From IMG/VR virus record IMGVR_UViG_3300035212_002004, positions 1 through 40,099 of that record: a stretch of 40,099 bases of DNA; one strand, written 5' to 3'. Shown here piece by piece: positions 4,739-35,903 of this stretch (its first letter is position 1; each line of letters begins with the position of its first letter). Both the position numbers and the translations under genes were made by a program. The stretch is from a virus (Duplodnaviria > Heunggongvirae > Uroviricota > Caudoviricetes). The notes under the pieces were generated by a model. The model made no database searches. It was not told the origin of the DNA and was given only the letters and a program-made list of their open reading frames with translations.

Positions 4739-5629
4739 TTATCTATAATATTTTAATAAGTATTCATGTAGACATATTTTCCAATCTCTCATATAGTTTC
4801 TGTTTAAATCGTTTAGGGATTTATTAATTAACTTTTCTGAGTAAGGTCTTGGTGCTGAGTATTCTTCTGCAAAAAAACTACTATCGACTTTATTAACGAC
4901 TACCCCTAGGTTTAGAAAGCTATTCATCTCTACTGCAGTCTGGTATCTACTAGCTTCTCCTGAGCTAACCATGTTGTATAGTCCATAGGGAAGATCATCC
5001 TCTAGGTGTTTTAGTATTGAATATGCAAAGTCTTTTGTGTATGTAGGCACTCCTAATTTATCATCTACAACATTAAGCTCTTTTACTCCTGCTTTAATCT
5101 GCTTCATGATCTTATTTACAAACTTCTTATCCTTAGAAGGACCTCCTCCCATCATCCATCCAGCTCTAAAGATCCAATACTTTTCATAGCCTTGATTCTG
5201 CAATAACTGCTCTGTGTAGTATTTACTTTTTCCATAAGCACTTAATGGATAGGGAGTATCCTCTTCTGTATAGAATTCTTTATCGTTACCAAAGATTCCT
5301 GCTGTACTGATAAAGACGTAGGGTATGTTTAAATCCTTTGCTAAATTAAATAAATGTATAGCTGCAATTGTATTAGTTAAATAGCAATCATCTTTTTCTT
5401 GTTCACAGTACTCTAGGTCTACTAACGCAGCAAAGTTTAAAATAACATCCGGCTTATATGCTGCTACAATCTCGGTAGTGTGTTTTAAATTTCTAATATC
5501 GCAGAAAGGCATTCCTCCTTCTACATCTTTATCTGTAAGAAGATATTCTGAGGTGTCTGTTAGGTTTTGTAAAGTAGTTCCTAGCATTCCATTAGCTCCT
5601 GCTATGAATATTTTTTTATAATGTGTCAT
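4739..5629 (-). CDS. rmlD: dTDP-4-dehydrorhamnose reductase (RmlD/RfbD family SDR)
   Basis: GANGMLG Rossmann motif, PDVILNFAA, YGKSK catalytic motif, PTYT, APRP. Confidence 0.85.
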   Translation of the reverse strand: MTHYKKIFIAGANGMLGTTLQNLTDTSEYLLTDKDVEGGMPFCDIRNLKHTTEIVAAYKPDVILNFAALVDLEYCEQEKDDCYLTNTIAAIHLFNLAKDLNIPYVFISTAGIFGNDKEFYTEEDTPYPLSAYGKSKYYTEQLLQNQGYEKYWIFRAGWMMGGGPSKDKKFVNKIMKQIKAGVKELNVVDDKLGVPTYTKDFAYSILKHLEDDLPYGLYNMVSSGEASRYQTAVEMNSFLNLGVVVNKVDSSFFAEEYSAPRPYSEKLINKSLNDLNRNYMRDWKICLHEYLLKYYR

Positions 5630-5633
5630 TTAT

Positions 5634-6254
5634 TTACTGTTCTAATAATTCTATTTGAATATCTTCTTCTTTCATTCCCATAAGTAAGTAGTGTCTGTGA
5701 ACTACCTCTTTACTGTCGGGAGAGTCTATGGTAAGTATTTTAAAATCTAATGCAGGATGTGTTCTCTGTATACTTGCTTGTAGTGAACTAACATCCTTAT
5801 TAAATCTAGTTACTACAAAGGTAACCTCATCTCCTTGTTGTGTATACTTTCTAAAACTATCAACTCTCCTATTATACCTCTCTTTTAGTAGTAAGAAGTC
5901 ATCCTTAATGTAATGGTCAATACCTCCTGTCCATCCTTGGCTTACGTATAAGTTTGCATGACCTGGTGATTCGTGGTTGAATATGAAGTTGTACTTTGTG
6001 TTATACACAAGATACTCTCCTTCTACAATACCCCCTATGCTAAAAGGAGCTTGGAGAACTTGCAGGTACTTTTCATCCATGAAGTATTTAAAATCATCTG
6101 CAAGACATTCTTCAACTCCTTTTAAGTTTGTTATCATCTCATCGAAAGGACAAGTTTTATATCCAACTCCTTTTCTCTCTCTCAACCCTACTTGTACTCC
6201 GTAACCGGCTGAATGGTAATTCCATCCTAATGAGATTCCTATTGGTTTATTCAT
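5634..6254 (-). CDS. DUF1796-like (putative papain-like peptidase) protein
   Basis: ISLGWNYHSA, L-R...CPFDEM, FNHE, ERYNRRVDSF pattern; expected Cys is Tyr. Confidence 0.55.
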   Translation of the reverse strand: MNKPIGISLGWNYHSAGYGVQVGLRERKGVGYKTCPFDEMITNLKGVEECLADDFKYFMDEKYLQVLQAPFSIGGIVEGEYLVYNTKYNFIFNHESPGHANLYVSQGWTGGIDHYIKDDFLLLKERYNRRVDSFRKYTQQGDEVTFVVTRFNKDVSSLQASIQRTHPALDFKILTIDSPDSKEVVHRHYLLMGMKEEDIQIELLEQ

Positions 6255-25077: not shown

Positions 25078-25176
25078 TTAAAATATTAAGTTGTAAATTA
25101 TTGTCCATAATACTATTGTAACTGCTCCTATACTAGTCCATAAAAGAGGTTTAACATAATCTGTTTTTCGTTTCAT
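25078..25176 (-). CDS. small membrane peptide (32 aa)
   Basis: MKRKTDYVKPLLWTSIGAVTIVLWTIIYNLIF; fills gap between promoter 25194-25225 and queD ATG. Confidence 0.55.
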   Translation of the reverse strand: MKRKTDYVKPLLWTSIGAVTIVLWTIIYNLIF

Positions 25177-25193
25177 TGTTATATGTTTTTATT

Positions 25194-25225
25194 TTAATAT
25201 ACGGACTTTATTTTGTTATTCCAAA
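25194..25225 (-). promoter_or_regulatory. promoter (TTTG-N20-TATATTAA) upstream of queD-queE-folE block
   Basis: minus strand TTTG-gaataacaaaataaagtccg-TATATTAA. Confidence 0.65.
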
Positions 25226-25419
25226 CTTTTCTTAACAAATTCATCTCTATTTACAATTACATTAATTATACTTGGTAATTCACCTTGTGGACATCCTGCT
25301 GGTATTCTCTCCATTAGCTGTTTGTATGTATCATCGCCAACTATTCCATCAATAGTGTATTCTGTTTTAGTTCCATTTTCATATATTGCAATTGAATATG
25401 TCTCTAGCTTACTTTCCAT
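25216..25419 (-). CDS. hypothetical protein
   Basis: 67-aa ORF in operon. Confidence 0.55.
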   Translation of the reverse strand: MESKLETYSIAIYENGTKTEYTIDGIVGDDTYKQLMERIPAGCPQGELPSIINVIVNRDEFVKKSLE

Positions 25420-25639
25420 CTCCTAAATGTTTTTTTATTTGTTCGTCCCATTCTTCATTTATTTTATCTAAAGCATCTGCAATACCTCTTAGGGCATATG
25501 AACTCCAGTACCCTGATGTTTCTGTTGTGTAGTATCCGTAGTATCCATCATCCTGCATGATAAACTTTCCTATTACCTTTGTATTGAAATAGACTAAGTG
25601 AACTCCGTTTGTAACGTAAGATAGGTGTATCATTTCCAT
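25409..25639 (-). CDS. hypothetical protein
   Basis: start likely at 25639 or 25633 (ATGA overlap); QDDGYY..., WSSYALRGIAD. Confidence 0.6.
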   Translation of the reverse strand: MEMIHLSYVTNGVHLVYFNTKVIGKFIMQDDGYYGYYTTETSGYWSSYALRGIADALDKINEEWDEQIKKHLGDGK

Positions 25640-25968
25640 ATTAATTGAATTAACATTATACAAACTGCTAGTGCTAAACAAACTAGAGTTTTTGCTGTGA
25701 GAGGTTCTCTAAACCACATCCAAGACATTGCCATGAACACTACTGCTCCTATGGCAAATCCTAGTAACCTAGAAGGCCATAGATTTCCATCAAAATGTGC
25801 TACCATATATTTTACTGATTGTAAATATAAAAGCGATAAAGGAAATCCTAAAATAGCCATATACATTGGATTATCTTTTGCCCATTGGAATTTGAACTGT
25901 CCCTGTAGTTGTAAGAATGTTAGTACTTGTGCTAAAATTCCGTAAAGTAATCCTAGTATGAAATTCAT
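25630..25968 (-). CDS. small 4-TM membrane protein, DMT/SMR-like
   Basis: four hydrophobic segments, FREPLT..TLV motif; start MNFILG at 25968. Confidence 0.65.
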   Translation of the reverse strand: MNFILGLLYGILAQVLTFLQLQGQFKFQWAKDNPMYMAILGFPLSLLYLQSVKYMVAHFDGNLWPSRLLGFAIGAVVFMAMSWMWFREPLTAKTLVCLALAVCIMLIQLIWK

Positions 25969-25969
25969 A

Positions 25970-26635
25970 TTAATTGTTTTTGTATTTCCAAATAAACCCA
26001 CCTACACTCTTTCTTTTACCTCTTCTACAAGAACATATATCACTTGAATCTATTTTTAATTTAGTTCCAGCTTGTTTAGCAGATTCCCATTCTTTTATAA
26101 AATTTCCTTGTAGGTCATACTGACATGCTGGGATGCTTTTGGCTTTAGCTAGGTTTTCTCTATGTTTTGGTGTTTTTATAAGTCCTGTTATACTGTCTTT
26201 TAAATTCTTTCTGTGAGAATCAGTCATAGGAGGTTTTTTTACCCCTTTCTTAGATACTCCCATTTTTAATCTAGTTTCTAGTGATTTTGGGATTTGTTTC
26301 ATCATATCAGCATGTTCCTGCCTTATTCTCTCGTACTGTCTATTTCCTATCTTATAATTCCTATTAGCTGTTTTTTGATTTGACATTGCCCATAGTGCAA
26401 ATTTTAATTTAGGTTCAACTAAGTAAATTCGACATAATAGTTGGTGACAAACAAAATGTTCTCTCGCTGTTAGTAGAATAATATTAGGATGTATTCTCCA
26501 TTGATGTGTTTTTCCTTCTCCACCAACACATTTTGGTATTATATGATGCCTCTCATAATATACACCTTTACCATATAACCTACCTTCTTTTCTTGCTCGA
26601 TCAATTATTTGATCATAAATTCTTTGATAATCCAT
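25970..26635 (-). CDS. HNH homing endonuclease with NUMOD3 repeats and NUMOD1
   Basis: YERHHIIPKCVGG...NIILLTAREHFVCHQLL; ETRLKMG, HRKNL, HRENL; QYDLQGNFIKEWES...GGFIWKY. Confidence 0.9.
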   Translation of the reverse strand: MDYQRIYDQIIDRARKEGRLYGKGVYYERHHIIPKCVGGEGKTHQWRIHPNIILLTAREHFVCHQLLCRIYLVEPKLKFALWAMSNQKTANRNYKIGNRQYERIRQEHADMMKQIPKSLETRLKMGVSKKGVKKPPMTDSHRKNLKDSITGLIKTPKHRENLAKAKSIPACQYDLQGNFIKEWESAKQAGTKLKIDSSDICSCRRGKRKSVGGFIWKYKNN

Positions 26636-26641
26636 AAAAGA

Positions 26642-26733
26642 TAAAAGCTACGGCTTTCGAGGTGGACGTCTCTACTTGCCTGTAGCTTTTAGTTAGTATT
26701 TTCTATATACGTAGCGTCCACTCTACACATATA
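26642..26733 (-). ncRNA. putative structured RNA (two hairpins with complementary loops, loop-E motif)
   Basis: hairpin 1 loop AGUGGACG, hairpin 2 loop ACGUCCAC, internal loop AAGUA/GAAA; fills the thyX-HNH intergenic gap. Confidence 0.6.
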
Positions 26734-26745
26734 AATATCAACTTT

Positions 26746-27396
26746 TTATGAAAAACTAAAAGCTTCTATTGTATATTTGAAAGGATTTCCTTCAATATTT
26801 TTTACTAAATCAAGCATTTGCTGTGCTAATTCTCTAACTTCTTTTTGACTATGCTCGGAGTTTCTTAATCCTTGAAAGTGAGCGAAGCTTCTGAAGTTAA
26901 AAGAAATGTCCATTGTAATTTGAGAGTTCATAGTTTTAAAAAATCTAGCTGATTCCTTTGCTCTCTTTCTTCCTAATACTGGTGTTAATTCTTCTAAGCA
27001 TTGATGATAGTAGTGATTACCTTGATTAGTAAAATTCTGTAATCTCTCTGCCCAGGTAGTAGTACAGTCGCTTACTTCCACCTCAAACCAATCTTCAGGT
27101 AAGTAGGATTTGTCTTCTTTTAATTCTTTATATCTAGCACTCTCACCATTAATAGAAACTCCAATACGATGTTTAAGTAAATGAATGTGAGTCGCTTGAT
27201 CTACATTTACTAAAAAATGTAATTGACTTTTTTCAAAAGGAGTATGATGTCCCTCAGATGCTAACATTTTTAGCAACTTAGGAATCCTTTGTATCTTTTC
27301 CTCAGTTAACTCTCTTGAAGTTGATGTCCATGCACTGCTTGCATGTACTGTATCGTTTCCATAATATCCTAATAATTCTACTGTATTTTTATTCAT
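26746..27396 (-). CDS. thyX: flavin-dependent thymidylate synthase
   Basis: GHHTPFE, KHRIGVSINGESARY (RHRxxS..SxR variant), AKESAR, NFRS..HF..LR...HSQKEVR; start MNKNTV at 27396. Confidence 0.9.
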   Translation of the reverse strand: MNKNTVELLGYYGNDTVHASSAWTSTSRELTEEKIQRIPKLLKMLASEGHHTPFEKSQLHFLVNVDQATHIHLLKHRIGVSINGESARYKELKEDKSYLPEDWFEVEVSDCTTTWAERLQNFTNQGNHYYHQCLEELTPVLGRKRAKESARFFKTMNSQITMDISFNFRSFAHFQGLRNSEHSQKEVRELAQQMLDLVKNIEGNPFKYTIEAFSFS

Positions 27397-27679
27397 CTGA
27401 TGTATTAATTGATGTTTGTACTTCTCCATAAAATCCCTCCTCTGAGTACCATGCAGTTGCATACTCTCCTCCTTCTCTCCAATATGCTTTGTAGCTATTA
27501 TCCATTGAATCAAATTGACATATAACTACTTTTACTGAATCAGGCTTTGCATACATAACTGTACCGTAAGGATACTTTTCTTCATACACTGTTGCTGGTT
27601 GTTCCTGAAGTTGTTCTTCCTGCTTATTGTTACAGCTAATTGCTACAATTGCTAGTAATATTATTAGTATCTTATTCAT
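27389..27679 (-). CDS. putative lipoprotein
   Basis: MNKILIILLAIVAISC lipobox-like signal. Confidence 0.65.
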   Translation of the reverse strand: MNKILIILLAIVAISCNNKQEEQLQEQPATVYEEKYPYGTVMYAKPDSVKVVICQFDSMDNSYKAYWREGGEYATAWYSEEGFYGEVQTSINTSDE

Positions 27680-32242: not shown

Positions 32243-33184
32243 TTATTTCTTTTTAAATTGTTCAAACCATTTATTATCTTCAAATGCATTAGACGAAATT
32301 CCAAACCAATTTAATCTTAGTTTTAATATTTCCTTAACTTCTTCCTCACTATAACTTCTTTCTTGTTGCCATTTAGCACCCGCAATAAATCCATTTTTTG
32401 TAGTTACTAATAAAGGTTGTTTAGCATAATTTAAAGCAACTTCTTCAAGTGTTTCTTGTTTAGCATTTGCAATAAATCTTTCCACTATTTTATCTTGTTT
32501 AGGTAATGAGTCGTAAGCCATTTTAGCATTCATTTGCATAATTTTTGTTATCATACATTCTTGTTTAGGTTCTTCTTCTATTCCTTTACAAGTTTTTGTT
32601 AAATAACCAAGACATTCATCTGTACAAGTGCAAGTTTCTTCTGTTGGTTTAAAATCTTCCACAGTTCCTCCATTTTTAAAATGTTGAACAAAATGTTCTT
32701 TACCTTTAATAGATTTTTCTAGTCCTTCTTTTATTTTTGAATAATCTTTTGGAATGATTATTTTGTATTCCCAACCTTTTTTTATATCAAAAAAATTCTT
32801 AGGTTCGTAGATAGTATCAACCTCTTCACAACTTGGATTCTTAACAAACCATTCTAAAAATTCATCATCAATAGATTGTACACCATCTTTGATTAAGTCT
32901 TGGTCTGTTGTTAGGATTATTTTTTTAAACCATCTATTTACATAGGTATTAGATTCCCCAATCCATTTAGTTATTTTATTAAAATTAGTATCGTAATACC
33001 ATTCATTTTCTTCTCCTTCTTTAATTTCTTCATCAGAAGTTATGTAGATGTGTTGGTTTTGAGTTCCACTGCCAAAATTCTCTGTAAACTCTGGATTATT
33101 AGAAGTAATACCTAATTTGTTATTTGATTTAATTAAGTAAATTCTACTTGGTTTGTCTGTTGGCAATACGTGTAAGTTTTTCAT
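32243..33184 (-). CDS. hypothetical modular protein
   Basis: 313 aa, MKNLHVLPTDKPSR, KIILTTDQDLIKDGVQ, PKQE repeats, modular C-terminus. Confidence 0.75.
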   Translation of the reverse strand: MKNLHVLPTDKPSRIYLIKSNNKLGITSNNPEFTENFGSGTQNQHIYITSDEEIKEGEENEWYYDTNFNKITKWIGESNTYVNRWFKKIILTTDQDLIKDGVQSIDDEFLEWFVKNPSCEEVDTIYEPKNFFDIKKGWEYKIIIPKDYSKIKEGLEKSIKGKEHFVQHFKNGGTVEDFKPTEETCTCTDECLGYLTKTCKGIEEEPKQECMITKIMQMNAKMAYDSLPKQDKIVERFIANAKQETLEEVALNYAKQPLLVTTKNGFIAGAKWQQERSYSEEEVKEILKLRLNWFGISSNAFEDNKWFEQFKKK

Positions 33185-35168: not shown

Positions 35169-35861
35169 TTAAATTATTTTGTCTCTTTTTTTAATATTAT
35201 CTAGATGCCACATAGGTCTTAAATTAGAATAATGATTTAATTTTTTAACTTCTTCTAAGGTATTAGCTGAACTAATAGGGGTAAAGTGATCTATAGACCA
35301 ATCTGTTTCTACTTTATTACCATAGTTACTCCAATTCATTCCTTCAGTAAATTGATTTTCTAAATGTTGTTTGAAATCTTCCCAACTGTCTAATCCTATT
35401 ATATTTAAAGTAGGAAGGTCTTTAGTAGAATTAATTTCTCTAATCCTCATAGAGATAGAAGCTCTCATATTTTGAGATAATTTAAATACAGGATCATTTT
35501 GTTTACGAACTTTCATATACTCATTATCTCTTTGTTTAATATGAGGTTGAGCATTATAAAGCTTACGTTTATCTTTATTTTCAATATTATATTGAGTCTG
35601 TTTTAACTTTCTATAATCTTGATCTTTTAAATAAGCAACCTTATTCCTTTCAGAATATGTTTCTTTATTATTAAAATAACGTTGTTGTTGTTTTTCTTTT
35701 ATTAAACTTTGATTTTTTGTTTGAAAGGTTTCAACTTGGAATTTCCAACAAATTTTACAAACAGGCATTACACCATATTTGCATCCTTCTTTCTTATAAA
35801 ATTCTAGGGTAGATTTTTCCTGCTCGCATTGGGAGCATTTCTTTTGAATATGTATCGTCAT
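35169..35861 (-). CDS. HNH-type endonuclease with N-terminal Zn finger
   Basis: CSQC...FY...CKIC; HLENQF.EGMNWSNYG, WSIDHFTP, LNHYSNLRPMW..DN..K. Confidence 0.8.
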   Translation of the reverse strand: MTIHIQKKCSQCEQEKSTLEFYKKEGCKYGVMPVCKICWKFQVETFQTKNQSLIKEKQQQRYFNNKETYSERNKVAYLKDQDYRKLKQTQYNIENKDKRKLYNAQPHIKQRDNEYMKVRKQNDPVFKLSQNMRASISMRIREINSTKDLPTLNIIGLDSWEDFKQHLENQFTEGMNWSNYGNKVETDWSIDHFTPISSANTLEEVKKLNHYSNLRPMWHLDNIKKRDKII

Positions 35862-35903
35862 AATAAATTATTTGGCGATAATAAATATTATAAAAGCATA
35901 GAA

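Follow-up and report, generated by a model that had tools for sequence, protein, structure and literature searches.

A conserved two-hairpin RNA with a loop-loop helix at the start codons of unrelated homing nuclease genes in a phage clade

Introduction

A conserved RNA composed of two hairpins, whose loops pair with each other in a 7-bp helix, is found at the start codons of homing nuclease genes in a clade of uncultured phages, where selfish nucleases unrelated to one another have it in common as a portable control module, exchanged between genes at the ATG. Its carriers are AT-rich myoviruses with Bacteroidota-style promoters and without Shine-Dalgarno sequences. We consider it probable that the element is a cis-acting structured leader that doses or times expression of the homing nuclease, following the logic of T-even phages in a new fold. 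This type of regulation is known from T-even phages, whereas the RNA fold is undescribed, both in Rfam and in the literature.

In T-even phages, homing endonucleases are regulated by promoters located inside hairpins that sequester the ribosome-binding site (RBS), by internal terminators and by RNase E sites (PMC2988022). A late or middle promoter is embedded in the leader hairpins of I-TevI, I-TevII, I-TevIII, segB and Aeh1 mobE, and intrinsic terminators in or beside T4 mobE and segF lower the levels of the endonuclease transcripts (PMC2988022).

A structured leader between thyX and an HNH gene

The window analysed here is a stretch of 40,099 nucleotides at the beginning of a virus record of 168,099 bp (G000). 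The parts of the element and the neighbouring features are collected in Table 1.

Table 1. Positions of the leader, its structural parts and surrounding features in the window.
Feature	Position	Strand	Remarks
thyX (flavin-dependent thymidylate synthase), upstream gene	26746..27513	minus	Pfam Thy1, E 1e-29
Leader RNA	26750-26633	minus	between thyX and the Mob-like HNH gene; gap 110 nt
5' A-run CAUAAAAAG	26742..26750	minus	kept in both leader families (alignments)
ATATTTAT box, putative second (late-type) promoter motif	26731..26738	minus	motif statistics; inferred start 26726
Hairpin 1	26704..26733	minus	arms 26733-26723 / 26714-26704, 11 bp
Hairpin 1, conserved core GUAG/CUAC, 4 bp	26726-26723 / 26714-26711	minus	
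Hairpin 1, loop AGUGGACG, 8 nt	26722-26715	minus	
Kissing strand 1, GUGGACG	26715..26721	minus	complement of 26668-26662
A-rich single-stranded linker GAAAAUACUAACU	26691..26703	minus	family consensus AAAAUAUCAAC
Hairpin 2, 48 nt	26643..26690	minus	AAAAGCUAC-A-GGC-AAGUA-GAG-[ACGUCCAC]-CUC-GAAA-GCC-GUAGCUUUU
Hairpin 2, outer stem	26690-26682 with 26651-26643	minus	
Hairpin 2, bulged A	26681	minus	
Hairpin 2, GGC/GCC	26680-26678 with 26654-26652	minus	
Hairpin 2, loop-E-type internal loop	AAGUA 26677-26673 opposite GAAA 26658-26655	minus	
Hairpin 2, GAG/CUC	26672-26670 with 26661-26659	minus	
Hairpin 2, loop ACGUCCAC, 8 nt	26669-26662	minus	
Kissing strand 2, CGUCCAC	26662..26668	minus	pairs with strand 1
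U-rich tail AUCUUUU, hairpin 2 to AUG	26636..26642	minus	most copies: U7-8, then AUU
HNH homing endonuclease gene, free-standing, 221 aa, Mob-like	25970..26635 (ATG at 26635)	minus	Pfam PF22083
Early-type promoters	442, 16938, 29285, 30913, 33225, 34671, 35131, 38278, 39670	minus	34 more in G000

A first-pass annotation of the window had drawn two hairpins with their loops, a tail, the ATG and a motif at the 5' edge on the minus strand, and all of these were found where it had placed them. The 7-bp complementarity that it read between GUGGACG and CGUCCAC is exact, has a perfect counterpart in every copy of the window's family and involves a 7-mer that has no third occurrence in the 40-kb window. 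The two loops belong to one strand of a single leader and fit into about 60 nt, their 7-mers being about 46 nt apart, so the kissing contact is intramolecular; by simple arithmetic, the chance that two given loops of 8 nt show Watson-Crick complementarity over 7 nt is about 2 in 10,000. The G-U pairs said to work on the minus strand only are also present, two G-U/U-G pairs of hairpin 1 becoming mismatches if read on the plus strand. The internal loop of hairpin 2 has the sequence of a loop-E motif, A-AGUA opposite GAA-A, flanked by GGC/GCC and GAG/CUC.

The 121-nt stretch folds at -31.8 kcal/mol, compared with -19.95 +/- 2.9 kcal/mol for shuffled versions (z = -4.0; 0/200 as good). Alone, the stem of hairpin 2 reaches -17.1 kcal/mol and the 4-bp core stem of hairpin 1 a marginal -1.4 kcal/mol, while the duplex of the two kissing strands of the window is calculated at -10.5 kcal/mol, the contribution of the kissing duplex being put at about -9 to -11 kcal/mol (free duplex about -9.4). 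The kissing helix is 61% G+C, vs 32% in the rest of the element. In the minimum-free-energy fold of the window copy, and of this copy only, CAUAAAA (26750-26744), which includes the stop codon of thyX, pairs over 7 bp with UUUUAUG (26639-26633), which includes the start codon of the nuclease gene. The thyX stop codon TAA (26748-26746) and the last codons of this gene are themselves derived from the 5' edge of the leader. Because the A-run lies upstream of the putative promoter box, it would be present only on read-through RNA.

Covariation across the family

A second copy of the leader is found in the same virus record (C1:40623-40727), 78% identical and located before a different gene that encodes a 312-aa endonuclease-like protein; both of its loops are changed yet matched, GUCGGAC pairing with GUCCGAC. 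A strict core pattern retrieved 21 stretches from IMG/VR, to which relaxed patterns and a covariance model added the divergent members L109, L114, L131/L139, L137, L152 and L154. The extra matches of the relaxed pattern CAAGTAGAG...CTCGAAAG, found in coding DNA, were mostly due to chance and were discarded.

Covariation was assessed in 28 copies from viral contigs, using an alignment model that does not contain the loop-loop helix. Across this set 96.4% of the cells pair, with double (compensatory) changes at 23 of the 27 base pairs. In the kissing helix all 189 of 189 cells pair, each of the seven positions has undergone double changes and none of 500 shuffles was equal, whereas sliding the kissing partners against each other, as a control, drops pairing to 28-45%. 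In addition, 16 further metagenome copies that entered no model carry, without exception (16/16), a perfect 7-mer complement at the expected place. The window's family comprises 15 different loop pairs, perfectly complementary in all copies, and the loop pair is the fastest-evolving part of the leader (mean pairwise identity 0.60 vs 0.82 elsewhere). In nine multi-copy sets the loop pairs are all distinct; as random sampling gives the same result with a probability of 0.09, orthogonality of loop pairs within genomes is not established.

The stems behave similarly. The upper four pairs of hairpin 1 are formed in all copies and show compensatory changes, and the lower three in approximately 60-75% of them; an extension in which the 5' box GUUG(A/C)UAUUU pairs with the linker AAAUAUCAAC could form in most copies, with uncompensated changes in L008, L009, L012 and L013. 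Hairpin 2 shows compensatory changes at nine of ten outer-stem pairs and at one inner-stem pair, its inner stems covarying in L152 (GGU-GAGUA-GGG...CCC-GAAA-ACC), L131 (AGC...GCU) and L109 (AAC...GUU). G-U pairs that fit the sense strand only occur in L154 (GAG/CUU), in L137 and in hairpin 1 of the window. The AGUA/GAA internal loop, recognized as loop E already in the first reading of the window, is invariant in 27 of the 28 copies (L152 has GAGUA), and the core C-AAGUA-GAG...CUC-GAAA-G is nearly invariant in four subfamilies whose stems and loops all differ. The proposed tertiary-structured RNA is hence borne out, as covariation establishes both hairpins together with the loop-loop helix, and the covariance-model search that had been suggested as a check yields homologues with compensatory changes in the stems and kissing loops that are linked to HNH and GIY-YIG genes. 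We also considered whether UAUGG/CCUAAG, present in many copies, is an 11-nt GNRA-tetraloop receptor; this candidate was rejected, since its register misfits the outer stem, its bulged base varies (U, A, C) and the covariation favours plain Watson-Crick pairing.

The family appears to be absent from existing collections, in line with the initial view that it could not be assigned to a known one. Searches with Rfam 15 gave no gathering-level match in the window or in eight loci with other copies; the best sub-threshold matches had E-values of 1-7.5, for example RT-2, at 12.7 bits where the threshold is 40. By BLAST, neither leader type matched any of 50,697 GenBank phage records, the core pattern is absent from 185,579 prokaryote genomes, and a full-text literature search found no description of the leader. 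The RT-2 similarity (26591-26689, E = 2, not significant) rests on AAGUA, a 3-bp stem, a loop, a 3-bp stem and GAAA. A related observation comes from the G+C-rich phage L122 (about 5590-5760, minus), where the core C-AAGUA-GAG-loop-CUC-GAAA-G is part of a long terminator-like hairpin before a 483-aa ORF; no complementary upstream loop was seen there, and this occurrence may reflect chance or a recurrent loop-E hairpin module.

A sister family with the same plan

Weak matches of the covariance model led to a sister family with 39 distinct copies (L156, L158, L159-L197; one at about G000:C1:46725-46840). It shares with the window's family the 5' box (AAAAAGTTGCTATTTAT), the A-rich linker (AUAAAAACAUUAC), the U7 run and the kinds of nucleases that follow (GIY-YIG, HNH and endonuclease VII-like), and differs in the sequence of hairpin 1, in that of hairpin 2 (GGAGAUUUU...AAUUUCUCC) and in having no loop E. 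Its kissing loops are again complementary over 7 nt, in at least 12 versions; 95.9% of the cells pair, double changes are found at five of the seven positions and none of 500 shuffles was equal. Hairpin 1 of this family begins about 8 nt after the inferred transcription start (see below).

Sister leaders also contain an 11-bp A-U helix, formed between a segment that starts in the box and a stretch that ends in the AU of the AUG; it is paired in 93.5% of cells, with a few compensatory changes. A transcript beginning at the inferred late start would retain only 5 nt of this helix. By folding prediction, positions -12 to +6 have an unpaired probability of 0.225 in the long RNA, against 0.443 in the short one and 0.428 when the upstream DNA is replaced by control sequence, pointing to sequestration of the start region on the long transcript in the sister family, though not in the window's family.

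Nuclease genes behind the leader

Every copy has an ATG 14-17 nt downstream of its core and 8-9 nt from the end of the hairpin 2 stem, and no copy was found without an ORF start right behind it. The downstream ORFs belong to at least five unrelated endonuclease families, namely Mob-like HNH, GIY-YIG with NUMOD1/3, NUMOD4-HNH_3, DUF723/zinc-finger and endonuclease VII-like proteins; another GIY-YIG group is also represented. The HNH protein of the window has a NUMOD domain of the I-HmuI type and, across 99% of its length, shares 33-34% identity with MobB/MobE-type endonucleases of T-even-like phages. The suggestion that the element travels with homing endonucleases is thus well supported by the number of families and the fixed distance from the ATG. 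Moreover, one loop pair was found with different nuclease families, which argues that the leader is a module recombined at the ATG. The gene context of the divergent copy L109:3272-3392 (loops GUGGUGG/CCACCAC), which precedes a replication-initiation-like gene (phrog_270) and no nuclease, counts against reading the element as a nuclease leader. We also note that in L017:6017-6271 the leader is intact (141 bits) and the HNH ORF is truncated after 44 codons, as in a decaying nuclease gene.

The thyX loci of relatives provide a view of the locus without the insertion. None of 80 such loci carries the element, the end of thyX being different there and usually overlapping the next gene, and in L032 queD directly follows thyX; the element consequently arrived with an insertion. 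Relative to L032, this insertion corresponds to window positions 25087-26745; besides the leader and the HNH gene it contains an early promoter at about 25194 and three small ORFs of 123, 90 and 67 aa.

Promoter motifs around the leader

All genes of the 168-kb record G000 are on one strand, and neither genes nor promoters were seen on the other. The early-type promoter TTG-N20-TTCGTATATT occurs 43 times in the record, always on the minus strand, and is confined to 0-51 kb and 149-168 kb; the leader sits in this early-promoter region, downstream of thyX. The motif ATATTTAT is found 63 times on the coding strand, 46 of these sites being intergenic (intergenic DNA makes up 11.5% of the total) and 35 lying within 60 nt of a start, whereas its reverse complement occurs 23 times with only four intergenic sites. 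It precedes the portal and tail-sheath genes, whose presence identifies the phage as a myovirus, and from this association we infer that ATATTTAT is a late-type promoter. In three genes (G000:C1:166938, 141666, 100145) the ATG follows exactly 4 nt after the motif, with no case at 0-3 or 5-7 nt, and of 46 sites, 35 have A and 7 have G at box end + 5; as the simplest reading, this suggests leaderless late messages transcribed from box end + 5. For the leader, transcription would accordingly be expected to start at 26726, the first base of the GUAG core stem, and the box-to-GUAG spacing of 4 nt does not vary among the main family, the second G000 copy and L131. Both the promoter class and the start point are derived from genome-wide motif statistics. 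What counts against the promoter reading is that most leader copies have CTATTTAT and not ATATTTAT, which is invariant at the G000 promoter sites. The A-run and the GTTG before the box are common to both leader families, and ordinary late-type promoters lack them.

Other endonuclease-like genes of G000 (106076, 95188, 54951, 35861) are preceded by a plain terminator, the same box and the ATG, and in L100 the box alone stands before a GIY-YIG gene that follows thyX. From these loci it appears that nucleases of the clade typically lie behind the ATATTTAT promoter class; the kissing leader runs from the box through the hairpins and the U-run to the ATG. An endonuclease VII-like gene of the window (35169-35900, minus) has a G+C-rich terminator hairpin, AATATTTATTAT, about 20 nt and then the ATG.

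Two other promoter assignments were rejected. A T4-type TATAAATA late promoter on the opposite strand is at odds with the location of all genes on one strand, and ATAAATAT is not enriched in intergenic DNA; if the 5' box were an early promoter (TTG-N20-TATATT), its -7 position would fall in the variable loop. Many early genes of the window (for example at 33184, 34634, 35091 and 38243) start behind a conserved A-rich stretch, with (G)GTT immediately preceding the ATG (AAAGGTTATG). Leader-bearing nuclease genes do not have this context, and their start reads U-rich AUUAUG instead.

The U-run and the start region

A U-run directly follows the stem of hairpin 2, reading GCUUUUUUU(U)AUU in nearly all copies and GCUUUUAUCUUUU in the window, and a run of U7-8 after the stem is found in both leader families. 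No Shine-Dalgarno sequence precedes the HNH gene of the window. Hairpin 2 and the U-run together resemble an intrinsic terminator abutting the AUG, but with its 48 nt and A-U-rich base the hairpin is far longer and more irregular than a typical terminator and is not called by a consensus terminator scan. Because the promoter box precedes the hairpin, transcripts of the cassette's own would also meet this terminator-like structure, which counts against an attenuating role.

Transcripts from the inferred late start would lack the A-run upstream as well as the lower stem of hairpin 1. In the window's family (23 copies), however, the unpaired probability of positions -12 to +6 is 0.337 on the long RNA, 0.341 on the short RNA and 0.323 with control upstream DNA, that is, no effect by thermodynamic folding, a method that cannot model kissing loops. 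As long and short RNAs are equally accessible, thermodynamic folding does not support, for this family, the T-even logic by which the late RNA lacks an inhibitory arm.

Discussion

The leader is best compared with those of T-even homing endonucleases. In both cases a homing-endonuclease ORF located within an earlier transcription unit has a structured leader directly before it, the 5' part of this structure contains a late-type promoter motif, transcripts of the cassette's own would be shorter than the read-through RNA, and the arrangement presumably serves to hold expression of a selfish nuclease down or to delay it. They differ in that here there is no Shine-Dalgarno sequence to sequester and a U-run stands against the AUG; in that two hairpins are joined by a 7-bp loop-loop helix, T-even leaders having one hairpin; in that the sequence family is common to unrelated nucleases and present in several copies per genome; and in that the window's family has no predicted long/short difference in accessibility of the start site. 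In the T4 mobE and segF terminators, similarly, a U-run follows a stem where an HNH Mob-type gene begins, and the proposed role is one of dosing, but in the present case the stem precedes the ORF, extends over 48 nt that include a bulge and a loop-E-type internal loop, and has its terminal loop tied to a second hairpin.

As in ColE1 RNA I/RNA II and R1 CopA/CopT, loops of 7-8 nt pair over their whole length and the specificity resides in the variable loop sequence; unlike in those plasmids, a single strand of one leader carries both loops and no antisense transcript is involved. Guanidine-II (mini-ykkC) riboswitches and the L2-L3 contact of purine riboswitches likewise involve neighbouring 5'-leader hairpins that interact by their loops next to an expression platform. 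The loops of these riboswitches are conserved (ACGR or specific L2/L3 nucleotides) and make a ligand-dependent or ligand-supporting contact of few pairs, whereas the leader forms seven Watson-Crick pairs of free sequence and has no conserved pocket. The ACGR tetraloops of guanidine-II are not present, the leader loops being 8 nt long with 15 different sequences and without an Rfam match. The analogy to riboswitches drawn in the first-pass annotation is therefore unlikely to hold, given hypervariable loops and a sister family that does without loop E.

How the leader could act may be outlined as follows. The G+C-rich 7-bp kissing helix would lock the A+U-rich leader into one compact fold, in which hairpin 2 and the U-run could serve as an attenuator and as a barrier at the start site. 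Expression of the nuclease would thus be kept low on read-through transcripts from early genes, here thyX, while the late-type promoter of the cassette itself would supply a timed and dosed message, with the outcome of a low or late nuclease and little disturbance of the upstream host gene. Termination, translational repression and timing are the steps that we infer for this mechanism. The fast evolution of the loop pair is not accounted for by dosing or timing and counts against this reading. Rather unlikely, in our estimation, is the further idea that diversifying selection acts on the kissing pair as a private lock, or that a short leader RNA made from the late promoter acts in trans on the read-through transcripts of its own cassette only.

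Several other explanations of the element were weighed. It could be a stand-alone small RNA (box, about 85-90 nt, terminator) with a role in trans or in a structure, the nuclease being expressed by occasional read-through. The promoter-like box upstream and the terminator-like hairpin and U-run downstream would indeed bound a discrete unit, this unit is exchanged as a module between unrelated ORFs, and the L017 leader has stayed intact (141 bits) before a truncated 44-aa HNH ORF. We regard this explanation as unlikely: all copies keep a fixed spacing of 14-17 nt to the ATG, none of those found lacks an ORF start behind it, and the variable loops are occupied in cis, which leaves no obvious conserved and accessible seed except the A-rich linker. 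A similarly low probability is given to a processing or stability element, in which hairpin 1, the kissing helix and hairpin 2 stack into more than 30 bp and form an RNase III-type site or a nuclease-resistant cap, either severing the nuclease message from the upstream mRNA or shielding the 5' end of the late transcript. Transcripts of T4 segB/segG and Aeh1 mobE are processed by RNase E (PMC2988022). In the window, the inferred start at the first base of the hairpin 1 core stem would leave the 5' end flush in a helix, and the kissing duplex, at about -9 to -11 kcal/mol, would reinforce a 4-bp stem that is marginal by itself (-1.4 kcal/mol). The flush 5' end is not general, however, hairpin 1 of the sister family starting some 8 nt after the inferred start, and the conserved U-run would be left unexplained.

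Loop-E motifs are frequent protein-binding platforms, and Rom binds the ColE1 kissing RNAs, so that a factor-sensing switch can be envisaged in which a protein or small ligand on the loop-E platform or on the kissing complex tips the balance between termination and read-through. The near invariance of the core C-AAGUA-GAG...CUC-GAAA-G across four subfamilies with changed stems and loops would fit such a switch; nevertheless we hold it to be very unlikely, because the sister family has the same architecture and genes without loop E and the hypervariable loops offer no conserved pocket. The nuclease itself, proposed earlier as a possible ligand, is an unlikely autoregulator since unrelated nucleases stand behind one and the same leader, even with an identical loop pair. 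Loop-loop contacts are used by several small ribozymes, and loop B of the hairpin ribozyme has a loop-E-like motif; a self-cleaving ribozyme whose loop-loop contact docks two helices is nonetheless highly improbable here, with no Rfam ribozyme (hammerhead, twister, pistol, hatchet, HDV-like, hairpin, VS) among matches up to E = 10, neither a conserved junction nor, loop E apart, a candidate core for a cleavage site, and a sister family that lacks loop E. Equally implausible is a feature acting at the DNA level, the 7-mers being an inverted repeat for protein binding or recombination and the RNA fold incidental. The loops do constitute a 7-bp inverted repeat about 46 bp apart, yet the 7-mers are always exactly in the loops of two hairpins with independently covarying stems, the G-U pairs work on one strand only, and the 15 7-mers of the window's family and at least 12 of the sister family show no link to the nuclease family.

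A dosing or timing leader, which we continue to favour, would carry the T-even idea of a nuclease kept quiet until late over to phages whose hosts do not use Shine-Dalgarno sequences, where a G+C-rich tertiary contact may substitute for the RBS-sequestering stem. With their strong covariation, this uncatalogued RNA fold and its sister fold join the few known cis-regulators of homing endonucleases. Their mutually different matched 7-nt loop pairs, at least 15 in one family and at least 12 in the other, on constant scaffolds, constitute a library of kissing pairs for RNA engineering. They also raise the evolutionary question of why the loop pair changes fastest in the leader. If it were a private lock, the loop code of each cassette would avoid cross-pairing of co-resident or co-infecting leaders, and this reading or that of an RNA acting in trans, if true, would amount to a plasmid-like incompatibility among selfish genes inside one phage genome.
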